A stretch of 64,000 nt of DNA from NCBI GenBank assembly GCA_951406725.2, contig OX597831.1, forward strand, positions 17,794,001 to 17,858,000, in the 5' to 3' direction. Under the pieces are notes generated by a model, which was given only the letters and a program-made list of their open reading frames with translations, did not search any database and had not been told where the DNA came from. The stretch comes from Octopus vulgaris. Lineage: Eukaryota. The position numbers and the translations under genes were made by a program. Positions 24,327 to 54,185 of this stretch are shown piece after piece (position 1 is the stretch's first letter; each line of letters begins with the position of its first letter).

Positions 24327-27300
24327 TTATGTTTGTATAATTTTGCGAATATCATATATAATATCTATCATAGTTTCATTATACAATACACACGTGCAGT
24401 CATCGTTTTCCACATACAAATTTAATTCTTTATCGCAATCTCTGCTTGCTAGAGATGTACACATCTTCCAATGGGACGCAGTCACTCTATCTGTAATGTA
24501 AAAAGAAAATCACTTTTATTTTGGTCTATGGCTCTGAACATTTCCATAACCGTAGTAAACTATTTGAAAGATTAAGTTCATTTCTTTAACCGTTTTACAC
24601 ACAAAAATGTGGATATCGTGAAAAGTGATGGTGAATCACAAAGCAAGAACCTCGTGAAGTAGAATGCGGTGAAATGATGATTTGTTTTTGCTTTTTTGAA
24701 AATAGGAGTTATATTTTTCTTGCTCGTTCCAATACCTATTTCTTTACTACCCACGACGGGCTAAATGCAGAGTGGACAAAGAAGGACAGTCAAACGGATT
24801 AAGTCGGTTATATCGACCACAGTGCGTAACTGGTACTTATTTAATCGACTCCGAAAGGATGAAAGGCAAAGTCGACCACGGCGGAATTTGAACTCAGACC
24901 GTAGTGGCAGACGAAATACCTATTTCTTTACTATCCAAAAGGGTCCAAACACAGAGGGGACAAAGAAAGACAGACAAACGTATTAAGTCGATTATATCGA
25001 CCCCAGTGTGCGACTGGTACTTATTTAATCGACCCCGAAAAGATGAAAGGCAAAGTCGACCTCGGCGGGATTTGAACTCAGAACGTAACGACAGACGAAA
25101 TACTGCTAAGCATTTCGCCCGGCGTGCTAACGATTCTGCCAGATCGCCGCATTGCTCGTTCAAGTACAGTGTACAAAATCGTCAGTGTTTTCATCCAGTC
25201 GGATATCCTTCGTATTATAACTAAACAGGTTGTTTTATCAATGACACGCTGTTAATGACATCTAGGACACACCTCTGTTAAAGTTGTTTACAATTACGTT
25301 TCAATAATCAACAGGAATTTTCTATACTATCGCTTCTGTTTCATAATCTGACGCAAATGAACGAAACAATTGCATTGTTAGAATTTATAGCTATACATTT
25401 TGCATGTCAGATGTCTCGTAATGAATTGAAGGTTCAGTCTTTCTTGAGGGTAGTGAGAGATTATTCTTAATGCGCCTGTACGATTTTGAGATGCTTATGC
25501 ACAATGTGTGTTGTTTGAAAAGCATTCTCAGCACCGCATTTCGGTGTACAACTAAAACTATGCATTGTGAATATATTATGATAATCTGAAATCTTGATAA
25601 ACCGAAATTATTATATATCGAAGCTAATCCTATTGGTTACCTACTAAAGTTCCACCGTTGTGTTTACTGGAATAGCGACATCGTGTGTCCGAAATGAAAT
25701 CACATTCTCAAGCACAAATTTTATCAACGTAACTTATTTTGCATTCTGTTGCAGAGATCAAGTGGATACATTAGGGCAGTTGGTAATTAGTATAAGAAGG
25801 TTGAGAGTGAATTAGATGGAAAGCAGATGACATAGAAAAAAATAGAAACAGAATAGGTGGAGATGAATAAGAAGAATAATAATATGGGAGGAAAGAATTA
25901 TAATTAAATACAGATCGAATGAGGAAACAGAGCCCCCCTCCAAAAAAAAAAACCCAGCGAAACCAATTATATACTATACTGAAAGGAAACATATGTAAAT
26001 AAAAAGAAGTGAATAAGAGATGAAAAAGAATAAATAAATACAACCTTAACATCGGAAGAGATATAAAAAGAAGAAAGCGGTTGAACAATTCGGGTAATAT
26101 TTTTCGCGAGTCAGGAACCCTCAAAACATTATGTTAATATATGCCGGCGCGTGTGTGTGTGTGTTTAAGAGCCAAGCATTATTGACAGTTTTCTTTCATT
26201 TGCGTTTCTTCTAGAATGATTAAGCAGAATGCCATTACATTTTACTCTGTCGATGAAACCCATACTGATACTCATTCAATGCAGCAAGTAATTTTCTGTT
26301 TTTCTTAAGGGCTTGAGGCATGACACTAATCGTGAGGAAATTACAGCACTTATTTGCATTACATTTTAAAAATTTATTCTTCGCAGGAGCGTCGATATTT
26401 AGAGACTCTTCAGTGTACTACTCAGCATTATAGATTCTGTTGACAATGTCTGTGAATTTCTTAATACCATATGAGTCAAACATCTCATACGTTATTGTAT
26501 CAGGCACTTGGACTTTACCGTTTGTTAATTATTTTTATTTATTTATTTACTTAATGCTTAAACATGCACAGGGTCTACAATCTCAAATGCATTTAGATAG
26601 ATCGTGAGGAAATTCTGTCGTGGCTTTAATCTTCAAGGTGTTCTCTCACGTTTTCAGCCACATATGTTAATGACCATAGTTTCATTAGGCAGTTTCCTAC
26701 TTTCTTTTGTATAAATGAATCCCATTATCATTTGAACATTATCATTTACTCCCTTGAATTTTCGACATATGTTTATTTATTGTACTGTAATGGAGGCGCG
26801 TGGCTTAGTGGTTAGGGTGTCAGCACCATGATCGTAGGATTGTGGTTTCGATTCATGGACCTGGTGACGCGGGGTGTTCTTGAGCAAAACACTTCCTTTC
26901 ACGTTGCTCAAATCCACTCAGCTGGCGAAAATGAGTAACGCCGCGATGGACAGGCGTTTCGTCCAGCTGGGGAACATATACGCCATAGAAACCGGGAAAC
27001 AGGGCCCATGAGCCGGGCTAGGCTTTAAAAGGGCGCATTTATTATTTTTAATTGCCCGTGTCGAGATTCTCCATTTCAACATCCTGTGTGTATTTTGAAA
27101 AAAGTCTTGCTTTGTTTATAATTATTAGGACAATGGTCATTGTATTTAGTGTTACAACTTGAATTGTGTGTTTTTGCCAACATTTGACGTCAGCTTTTCT
27201 TTTGTATGTTTCAAAGAAAATGTCATAAAATCATTTGACGGAGTATGTTATAGAGAGTTCATAACCTCCTTAGAAATATCCGGCTTAGATGAAAAGTCTA

Positions 27301-51406: not shown

Positions 51407-54185
51407 CTAATTATTGTAGGTTTTGTATAATACACACTTGCAGTCTCTCCTTTCCACATGAAATCTCAATTCGCGGTCGCAGATGTTTAATGCTACTAAC
51501 ATGCACATCTTCCAAGTGGCGCAGGTCACTCCATCTGTAATGCAAAAATATAATTCGTTTTTATTTCGTCTAAGAAACTAATCATTTTCATAATCGTAGA
51601 AGGATTTCATACATACCATCCACCATTATATACATCCAGAAAGCCGAATTATTATATTGTGGAAACTGAGGTTGAATCATAAAATTGCTGTATATGTCAA
51701 GCGAGAAGCTCCTGAAGTAGATGAAGGGTACTGATGGACTCGGATTATTTTGGAAGACATTTTTTATTTCTCGAAAACAGAAGTTACATCTTTCATGCTC
51801 GTTCAAATATCCTGCAGAAGATCGACAACGGCTTCATCCAGGCATTCGTTATTGATATTGTAATAACTAAAGAGTCCACTTTATCAATGACGTATTCTTA
51901 AAGGCATCCAGCCCATGCTGCTGTTATAGTTATTCAGAATTTCCTTTCAAATGTCAACCGACATTTTCTCTATTGTTGTTTCTCGTTCATAGCATAGTCA
52001 GAATTTGTAGATATAAATTTTGCCTGTCTTGTGTCAAATAAACATTTTAAATCTTGGTAATTTTGGAGGTAAATAAATGCCTGATACGATTTGTGCGATT
52101 TGGTGAATATTATGCAGTAATGGGTGCTGTTCTGAAAATAATTCTCAGAAGGGCACTTGGGTGATTCAAAATATGCATAATGCATAATCTAGGATTAACT
52201 GATATTTGATAACCCAAAATTAATATATATTAACCCTTAATCCATGGGATAATTACGTGTGTGTGTGTGTGTGTGTTTGTTTGTATGTGGGGAATATTTG
52301 CTTGTGTGTGTGAGTAGGCGTGCGTTTAAAAAAGATATTTAAAAATGAGACAATTTTGTTGTCTCATGTAATTTCTTCTACAATTATAAAACAGAATATC
52401 GTTCCTTTTATCTCTATTAGCAAAACCCAGTTTGATCCATTCTCACTTCTGCATTTAATGAGTTTTCTTCTCTTAAAGATACATCATAAGAGCTTGAGGC
52501 ATAACATTAATGGTCGTACAGTCAGGGTCTACTCAATTTAATCTTATTTTTCGTAAGAGTATAGATATTTTCATTAATTTCATTGTTCGATCCAGCATTA
52601 TAGATTCTGTTGAAAAGGTCTGTGGGTTAGTCAATAAAATAATCGTCTAATATTACATATTACAAATGCGACAAGCATATGGGCTTTACCTTCAAATATC
52701 TATTTACTCATTTATTTACTGATAGCTTGGAGTTTTCTAGGGATTACAATCCCAAATACAATTACATGGATTGTAAGATTTTCTCGAGGCTTTCATCCAC
52801 AATAATTGCCTTACTTTCTCAATGCATATATTAATGATCACAATCATAAATGCAAATTTCCTCGTTTGAGTAAATAACTCCCATTTTGGAAATTATCGTT
52901 TCACTCTCTGACAGTTCTCGGAAATATTTATACATTCTACTTTCGATGTTTCTGCCGAGATTCTCAATGTGAACAGATTCTCTTTCGAGCGAACATGACT
53001 CAAACATACTGCATGTACTTTGAAAGAAGTTTTGTTGTGATTATAATTCTTAAGACCACAGTTCACTGTGTTTAGCGTTCAAACATTAATTAGATTATTT
53101 CCAATCATTGGCTACCAGACTTAGTTTTGGATGCTTCAAAGAAAATGCTATTATGTCACTAATTCACCAGCCACCGTATATAATAGCGTGCTCATAAAGT
53201 TTTAGTAATATCTCGTTTAGAATAAAAGGCTTTCATAATCCTTTGTTTGTTATATTGGATTCAAAAGGTAGCCATGAAAATACATCAGGTTTTACCTAAT
53301 CCAGTAGATATGAGTTGTGACGGAATGATGCGTGTTATTGCCGTACCTAAATGATATCTTAAGCGATTATATTTTCAGCGTGGCAAACCAGAATAATAAA
53401 CACATTTAAATGTATGACTATGAGGAATATGAATAAGGCTCATTAGATACTTCTATTTGCACGTGGTAACGAAAATGTCTTATAAAAGTGAAAAATGTCC
53501 AGAAAATCCAAATTAAGAAATTTAAAATTTCAAAGACATTCGTTAAAAAGAAACGGGAAAATTAAACAGAAAGATTTTATCAGGAAGAGCGAACGACAGG
53601 ATATTGAACAAGTGCAAAATGAAATCTGATGTTTTGGAGGAAAAATGTATTATGATGAATGCTATCAAGAAAATGTTAAAAATAAACACTACGTATGTGC
53701 GTGTGTGTGTATTCTTATATTTCCCGAAATATTGCAATATCTGAGGCACCAAACGGTTTCACAACGGAACATTGCAACACAAATGCAGGCTTACCGTATA
53801 TATATATATATATATATATATATATATATATATATATATATATATATATATATATATATATATATATTTATATATATATATATATATACAAAGTGAAAGA
53901 GAGTGGGGTGATGAGAGAGAGAGAGAGCGAGAGTGAGACAGAGAGGATTATAAATAATATTTAGACAAATATCATTTAGCTAGAAATTATGAATAAATAT
54001 AAATGTATTATGTGAACTCTACAATCAAAAGGCTAGAAAGATAGATGCCTTGATTGTTATTATCATCGCCATTTTAGATACTAATGGACATGGGAATGGA
54101 ATACATAACATATATACTTACTTAAATGATATAGAAAAATAAATAGAAAATATATCATAATGACGTTGCCTGAGGTAGGATTCAT
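51407..54185 (-). CDS. Family A secreted Cys-rich peptide A3, 63 aa, two coding exons (54185-54122 and 51534-51407): [63 protein letters not shown]
   Basis: Acceptor atgcag, donor A|gtaagt (phase 1), acceptor ttacag|AT. Open frame, with a signal-like N-terminus ending V-T-C. 17 of 30 residues in the W..Y core are identical to A2. An alternative in-frame ATG lies at 54158. Confidence 0.8.

Follow-up and report, generated by a model that had tools for sequence, protein, structure and literature searches.

A large, barely annotated array of predicted six-cysteine surface proteins in the Octopus vulgaris genome

Background

Ly6/uPAR proteins are encoded by tandem clusters of small genes, each combining a signal peptide, a disulfide-rich domain and a glycosylphosphatidylinositol (GPI) signal, and they serve in receptor tuning or recognition. 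Their three-finger domains contain 8-10 cysteines and have a beta-sheet fold. Neuritin (CPG15, NRN1) has six cysteines with a Cys-x8-Cys core, and vertebrates have one or two conserved neuritin genes. The N-terminal domain of RGM is helical and is part of a GPI-anchored protein. Here we compare with these systems two genes of Octopus vulgaris, A2 and A3, and the array of about 60 related copies in which they lie. Both genes are located in a stretch of 64,000 nucleotides (contig OX597831.1 of assembly GCA_951406725.2, positions 17,794,001 to 17,858,000 of the forward strand). We call this whole stretch the window and count positions from its first letter.

Sections of two papers describe neuritin as a small extracellular protein that is GPI-anchored and shed (PMC10123642, PMC6502786). 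Its surface anchoring is also treated in a part of PMC6234733, and its good conservation across species in a part of PMC10123642. Shedding of GPI proteins is presented as possible in passages of PMC10123642 and PMC10569057.

The proteins of the octopus array are similar to neuritin in predicted layout. However, the array holds about 60 fast-diverging copies, its domain is shorter, and no match was obtained with the neuritin hidden Markov model (HMM). With the RGM N-domain the family has in common a six-cysteine domain of similar size and the middle spacing x8, x7. In contrast to RGM, the array domain is split by a phase-2 intron, the outer spacings differ and the further RGM domains are absent. 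The Ly6/uPAR proteins provide an analogy of how such a layout works, but the array proteins have six cysteines, are predicted to be all-helical and have no Pfam match. We regard the array as working like neuritin and Ly6 in layout, and treat neuritin and the RGM N-domain as weak leads, not as memberships.

An earlier note on this DNA described A2 and A3 as a family of two spliced genes, each with a signal exon and an exon for a secreted four-cysteine mature peptide, possibly a toxin, an antimicrobial or a pheromone. The current work leads to another reading, to which we give a probability of roughly 0.6: A2 and A3 are five-exon genes for proteins of about 110 residues with a likely GPI tail, and the tandem array of about 60 copies in which they lie probably serves as a diversifying surface-recognition repertoire. 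The general kind of such an array is familiar. What the DNA contains is a large, barely annotated array of predicted six-cysteine surface proteins.

Results

Gene structure of A2 and A3

Both genes lie on the reverse (-) strand. The start codons, first donors and first acceptors were confirmed for both, as were the intron sizes (4386 and 2587 nt) and the intron phase 1 given in the earlier note, and its translations match the DNA if exon 2 is continued as far as the stop codon that comes first. What did not hold is the view of exon 2 as the terminal, mature-peptide exon. Exon 2 appears to be internal: a conserved donor follows its third cysteine, and downstream of it lie three more exons, the last of which encodes a hydrophobic tail.

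Comparison of the DNA with itself showed that the duplicated block extends about 5 kb past the stop codons proposed earlier for A2 and A3. An alignment of blocks across the five nearest units revealed the three further exons downstream of exon 2 as conserved blocks. In these units exon 3 has three cysteines and a length of 85-100 nt, the microexon has 18-21 nt, and the terminal exon with the hydrophobic tail was found in four of the five units at the stage of block alignment. The intron phases are 1, 2, 0 and 0 in every one of the five units, and the frames are open.

In A2, exon 1 (28877..28916, 40 nt) begins with the ATG at 28916, encodes the hydrophobic core of the predicted signal peptide and ends with the phase-1 donor GTAAGT. 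Exon 2 (24394..24490, 97 nt) encodes the end of the signal peptide and Cys1-x7-Cys2-x12-Cys3, and has the phase-2 donor GTGTGT. Exon 3 (21980..22079, 100 nt, phase 2 to phase 0) encodes Cys4-x13-Cys5-x9-Cys6 and exceeds that of most paralogs by five residues. It is followed by a 21-nt microexon, exon 4 (20688..20708), with the candidate GPI attachment site G-S-S, and by exon 5 (19580..19657), which encodes the hydrophobic C-terminal tail and the stop; a poly(A) hexamer lies 67 nt past the stop.

In A3, exon 1 (54122..54185) has 64 nt if counted from the first ATG at 54185 and ends with the same phase-1 donor, GTAAGT; the second in-frame ATG would give an exon of 37 nt, a size typical of the family. 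Exon 2 (51438..51534, 97 nt) again encodes Cys1-x7-Cys2-x12-Cys3 before the phase-2 donor GTGTGT, and has an extra cysteine at the predicted signal cleavage site, ahead of Cys1. Exon 3 (49221..49305, 85 nt) encodes Cys4-x8-Cys5-x9-Cys6. Exon 4 (48165..48185) is a microexon of 21 nt, and its acceptor has the less usual ending GAG; the microexon and the codon that closes exon 3 together form the candidate attachment site S-G-A. Exon 5 (45614..45670) encodes the hydrophobic tail and the stop, with a poly(A) hexamer 180 nt past it. One DNA run has a deletion of 28 bases at 51566-51593, which ends about 30 nt before the acceptor of A3 exon 2, near the expected branch point.

The revised products have 111 (A2) and 107 (A3) amino acids, with a mutual identity of 32%. 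From these sequence features it is highly probable that A2 and A3 are five-exon, six-cysteine genes with a signal peptide and a hydrophobic tail. The general description of A2 and A3 as hidden, spliced, paralogous genes of the octopus for cysteine-rich proteins with signal peptides and with no recognised family stands.

The donor after the third cysteine

Exon 2 ends two bases past the third cysteine codon, i.e., with the phase-2 donor at 24394 in A2 and at 51438 in A3. Among 18 HMM matches taken without selection for a donor, 16 have three cysteines, and GT (15) or GC (1) stands exactly at this place in all 16. In a wider scan, in which a cysteine followed by GT was preferred where several cysteines were possible, three cysteines are in frame in 41 of 45 matches, and the donor (GT in 40, GC in one) is there in 41/41. 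Joining pairs of exon 2 and exon 3 by script kept the frame and gave exactly six cysteines from Cys1 on, with eight residues between Cys3 and Cys4, in all 26 cases. One exon-2 copy (L032:9600-9700, -) has GC at the conserved donor, which may mean a GC-AG intron or a damaged copy.

The fourth cysteine of the supposed peptides is found by read-through only in A2 and A3 (two of the 41 three-cysteine copies). These two alone among 50 copies have the donor GTGTGT, while the commonest donor is GTATGT (14/50). The fourth cysteine appears in the read-through because GTGTGT is read there as protein. The framework WKMC-x7-CD[KR]EL-x3-VE-x2-DC-x-CVLY, by which the family had been defined, stands up to the third cysteine and one residue more. 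Given the fixed donor, CVLY and the tails beyond it are predicted intron (24327..24393 in A2 and 51410..51437 in A3, both at the start of intron 2 on the (-) strand). The corresponding pattern W-x2-C-x7-C-x12-C-x-C has two matches in the window and none in 60 shuffled windows, and so did not arise by chance. A2 and A3 are an example of a trap, in which a donor taken for a cysteine codon leads to a convincing yet false toxin-like framework.

Two-exon genes for secreted four-cysteine peptides, or, in a weaker form, a minor isoform made when the GTGTGT donor is skipped, would draw on the uniqueness of this donor among the 50 copies, on the even number of cysteines and early stop that read-through gives, and on one poly(A) hexamer 332 nt after the read-through stop of A2. 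Nevertheless, there is no such hexamer within 600 nt of the read-through stop of A3, and the two read-through tails are unlike each other beyond CVLY. The position of the donor is fixed in the whole family, several paralogs reach a stop one codon past it, and exons 3-5 are intact in both genes. The new cysteine would lie one residue from Cys3, against eight residues from Cys3 to Cys4 in the 26 spliced domains. As to the donor variant itself, sister duplicates are expected to have it in common, and A2 and A3 do group together in a tree of exon 2, with weak support. We consider secreted four-cysteine products highly improbable. The suggestion of a toxin, an antimicrobial or a pheromone loses its ground because the mature peptide behind it was wrong, and nothing was found in its support.

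The gene array

Our search covered 1.864 Mb around the window (from -300 kb to +1,564 kb relative to its start) and another 130 kb on the upstream side. At E < 0.01, iterated HMMs found 40 matches of exon 2 and 35 matches of exon 3, compared with no matches in reversed decoys; one or two of the 35 exon-3 matches have no splice signals. After divergent copies from a pattern scan were added, the union came to 60 exon-2 copies, and a rebuilt HMM yielded 58 matches at E < 0.01, again with no decoys. Thus the family does not have two members, as had been supposed, but about 60 exon-2 copies.

DNA profiles run over the 1.864 Mb gave 79 matches of the signal exon (66 with an open frame of phase 1) and 55 matches of the tail exon (48 with a hydrophobic frame). 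On the same strand these matches form 53 chains that start with exon 1 and exon 2, 41 chains in the order 1-2-(3)-tail and 26 in the complete order 1-2-3-tail. Further upstream, to -421 kb, there are nine more signal-exon matches, one exon 2 and one tail; the last exon-3 match in the other direction is at +1,543 kb. The array therefore spans at least 1.96 Mb, and neither of its ends has been reached. The array has blocks in either orientation, pairs of identical copies and copies that are broken, all of which is consistent with birth-and-death evolution through local duplication.

A third paralog is located on the (+) strand within the window, except for its signal exon, which precedes the window by about 5.8 kb. 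Its exon 2 (1621..1720) has three cysteines and the donor GTATGT, and its exon 3 (4862..4946) has three cysteines and an acceptor that ends with AAG. A microexon of 27 nt (6083..6109), a further candidate exon of 48 nt (6303-6350) and the exon with the hydrophobic tail and the stop (7227..7286) follow.

Lone copies of the last exon of A2 with its flanks, the rest of the gene being absent, are found at approximately -77.9 to -76.8 kb (98-99% identical) and at about -155.5 kb. In one gene unit, at about +1,211.9 to +1,212.3 kb relative to the start of the window, two different exon-2 copies are 200 nt apart, possibly mutually exclusive exons. We also observed a retroelement-derived antisense frame that mimics Cys-x7-Cys-xn-Cys with a donor in 19 places of the 1.86 Mb, one of them at window positions 61344-61458 (+). 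These frames were rejected as family members, being false positives of motif scans.

Annotated homologs and database searches

A profile of 11 exon-2 translations was compared with 1.84 billion representatives and gave five proteins at E <= 0.001, three of which are real matches: one fused, mis-built model and two proteins of O. bimaculoides. The first of the latter, XP_052830545.1 (LOC128249944, RefSeq, 107 aa), agrees with the five-exon model of a paralog at 83 of 108 positions (77%), from the signal to the tail. This paralog is located at +123 to +144 kb of the window, two units beyond A3, and the match spans the join of exons 2 and 3 as well as the microexon. The identity of XP_052830545.1 to A2 is 33%, and to A3 27%. 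The second, XP_052830540-2.1 (LOC128249942), stands for the isoforms of a different paralog, whose layout is the same. Both loci have the family layout of a signal, Cys-x7-Cys-x13-Cys-x8-Cys-x8-Cys-x9-Cys, a polar spacer and a hydrophobic tail; they are uncharacterized, and they are orthologs of other members of the array than A2 and A3.

The fused model is a public 302-aa "hypothetical protein" that combines exons of at least three array members with unrelated sequence; in it exon 2 is joined to exon 3. Its pieces match the region at 90-100%, so it was probably predicted on this DNA or on a close equivalent and cannot count as separate evidence that the proteins exist.

The profile search, the structure prediction and the fold search that the earlier note had called for yielded no clear match to a characterised family. 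Nothing in Pfam exceeded the cut-off, the PDB sequences gave nothing, and the fold searches gave no clear match. The literature searched, with supplementary expression tables outside its scope, contains no description of the family that we could find, nor any paper on the six accessions. Protein databases thus contain next to nothing of a family of about 60 genes for predicted surface proteins in a single 2-Mb array, because its exons are tiny and its introns are filled with repeats.

The predicted proteins

Signal peptides and GPI signals were assigned by hydropathy and by rule. The N-terminal hydrophobic core reaches an 11-residue hydropathy of 1.9-3.1 within the first 20 residues and is followed by small residues at the likely cleavage site. 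The proteins are hydrophobic at both ends, and their core is not. Members of the array have 101-121 aa and no further domain.

The AlphaFold2 model of XP_052830545.1, built from an alignment of 30 rows, has a mean predicted local distance difference test score (pLDDT) of 74, with 79-91 in the core. It contains helices at 18-42, 49-61 and 64-73 and no strands; a three-helix core is predicted for the six-cysteine domain. A nested set of disulfides, Cys2-Cys3, Cys1-Cys4 and Cys5-Cys6, can be inferred from the spacing, because x7 lies on helix 1 and x8 on helix 2. The peptide proposed earlier would be without Cys4-6. The median pairwise identity of paralogous domains is 26%, and the residues between the cysteines that are conserved at >=70% are limited to one Ala, one Tyr and one Phe.

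A GPI signal, as set out in a section of PMC7125958, is 20-30 residues long and has a small residue, a second small residue two positions later, then a polar spacer and lastly a hydrophobic stretch. In the array proteins the best 11-residue hydropathy of the tail is 2.64-3.02, with 0-9 residues beyond the most hydrophobic 11-mer, and the microexon supplies the polar spacer. The small-residue site is followed by 25 residues in A3 (S-G-A) and by 29 in A2 (G-S-S); a candidate site is present in five of the six proteins tested. The tails of A2 and A3 fit a GPI-attachment signal, and both proteins are probably GPI-anchored.

Venom and pheromone families, too, typically combine a small disulfide-rich domain with large tandem expansion and with fast amino-acid change where the cysteines themselves stay fixed. 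On these grounds one could see the array proteins as effectors. A GPI anchor or a single membrane span would keep them in store at the membrane until their release into mucus, saliva or the coats of eggs and sperm, and there the stable domain with its three disulfides would be a toxin, an inhibitor or a pheromone; the possible shedding of GPI proteins (in the parts of PMC10123642 and PMC10569057 mentioned above) agrees with this. For a purely secreted effector, however, the tail exon, which is kept throughout the array (48 hydrophobic frames), would be superfluous. Moreover, no such family is named in the main text of the octopod venom-genome paper PMC7656900, in which the words "cysteine", "GPI" and "tandem" have no occurrences (supplements lie outside this count). 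A role as released effectors seems quite unlikely to us.

Relation to neuritin and RGM

With XP_052830545.1 as a query, a feature atlas placed two unnamed mollusc clusters first (score 0.92; 129 and 115 aa), so the module may predate octopuses. Neuritin (PF15056) was third with a score of 0.86 and 155 of 256 features, and the ten best matches that bear a family all agree on it. The score is below 0.9, and the number of features is below the level of 170 usual for members of the same family. This result, together with the anchoring and shedding of neuritin (PMC10123642, PMC6502786, in the sections cited above), suggests that the array could be a diverged branch of neuritin or of the RGM N-domain, the members of which serve as neuronal surface labels in nerve growth or wiring.

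The RGM side of this suggestion comes from a separate gene on contig C2, which PF06535 matches above the Pfam cut-off within one exon (46683999-46684205, -); nothing in the array is matched. The cysteine spacings of this exon are 4, 22, 8, 7 and 21, compared with 7, 13, 8, 7-8 and 9 in the family, so that the middle x8, x7 is common to both. The family profile scores 9.0 bits on the exon, a value reached in 3 of 300 shuffles, while HHalign assigns a probability of 1.6-3%, which speaks against kinship. The exon itself has no match to PDB sequences at E <= 0.01.

Also against this descent, neither XP_052830545.1 nor two isoforms of XP_052830540-2.1 match Pfam NRN1 or RGM_N at E <= 10, and PF15056 has no matches in the genome in an exon-wise search, which a split domain could escape. 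Neuritin is conserved between species according to a part of PMC10123642, and the array family is not. Descent from neuritin or RGM with a role in wiring is a possibility that we think rather doubtful.

Sequence change between copies

We return to the reading of the array as a diversifying surface-recognition repertoire. In four young pairs, with a cut-off set after the data had been seen, two identical pairs excluded and gene conversion ignored in the counts, exon 2 shows an excess of amino-acid replacements: its 256 nonsynonymous sites carry about 32 changes, its 68 synonymous sites about one (Fisher p = 0.006). Within a single pair the difference amounts to 14% in exon 2 and 2.6% in the flanks (p = 2e-5).

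Several points weigh against this reading, among them the way in which the young pairs were chosen and counted. The signs of selection are uneven: exon 2 differs more than the flanking introns in three of ten pairs and less in one, and the pooled ratio of nonsynonymous to synonymous rates (dN/dS) is 1.6 for exon 2 (seven pairs) compared with 0.8 for exon 3 (five pairs). The divergence between A2 and A3 looks neutral, being about the same in exons as in introns (28/95 and 0.32, p = 0.63). No spliced read of A2 or A3 was seen, the sequencing runs that cover A3 being DNA. The splicing of A2 and A3 is predicted from sequence features and from the annotated ortholog of a neighbour; the support from XP_052830545.1 and XP_052830540-2.1 stands at the level of annotation. 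The signal and GPI assignments rest on hydropathy and a rule, under which XP_052830545.1 has no attachment site. Basic residues stand at the end of an isoform of XP_052830540-2.1 and of several tail exons, a feature also compatible with a membrane span, and Tyr-His interrupts the signal core of A3.

The neutral-looking divergence would also fit a birth-and-death array in which A2 and A3 have fallen silent or are in decay. Some of their neighbours do look broken: three cysteines in frame are absent in 4 of 45 exon-2 matches, a stop follows Cys2 in one copy, and the last exon of A2 has near-identical counterparts that stand alone at about -77 kb and about -155 kb. Yet the introns of A2 and A3 have diverged by about 30% with many indels, and both genes keep five open exons, all their splice sites, six cysteines and both hydrophobic ends. 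Two coding differences were seen in the DNA of other individuals, and both are synonymous. We find it very unlikely that A2 and A3 are decaying.

Repeats and transposon remnants in the window

Tandem copies of a short interspersed repeat are located in intron 1 of A2 (24731-25153) and upstream of A2 exon 1 (29216-29453). The short interspersed repeat of the A2 region has a very high summed depth in all four presumed-RNA runs. Decayed copies similar to non-long-terminal-repeat retroelements occupy 37000-44300 and 56200-64000, between and beyond A2 and A3, and the frame 61201-62997 (-) matches RVT_1 (E 5.5e-33). The open frame 13993-14946 (-) matches a PIF1-like helicase (E 8.7e-61); we presume that it is a fragment of a Helitron-type transposon.

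Discussion

The following course of events would connect the genes with a surface repertoire. Judging from the sequence features and the annotated ortholog of a neighbour, the five exons (phases 1, 2, 0, 0) would be spliced into one mRNA. The product would enter the endoplasmic reticulum by means of its signal peptide and fold into a domain of three helices, about 55-60 residues long, with three disulfides. A GPI anchor would take the place of the tail, joined to a small residue on or immediately past the border of exons 3 and 4, and the protein would be displayed on the outer face of the cell, with shedding possible. Finally, the exon-2 helix may bind a variable partner, which is the weakest step. 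Meanwhile the array would evolve by local duplication, loss and fast change of amino acids between fixed cysteines.

The predicted proteins have no cytoplasmic part and no catalytic motif; therefore they would act as ligands, decoys or co-receptors. With its small anchored domain, its many copies and the rapid change of one helix, the family is most plausibly seen as a repertoire of this sort. For the recognition of a changing partner by the array proteins we see about even odds.

A bolder version makes the array, at two megabases, a set of 60-80 GPI-anchored mini-proteins and an invertebrate offshoot of the six-cysteine module of neuritin and the RGM N-domain. The exon-2 helix, under diversifying selection, would contribute to a combinatorial identity code of the cell surface, alongside protocadherins; for A2 and A3 a switch to secretion is conceivable as well, by way of their weaker GTGTGT donor. 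Such a code may place the array on neurons, immune cells or gametes. This version is speculative, and we judge it unlikely.

Conclusions

The exon coordinates given here make the array testable in existing RNA and single-cell data. If its proteins are indeed GPI-anchored and diversifying, the array would be a candidate repertoire for immune, neural or gamete recognition, comparable in size to known cephalopod expansions.

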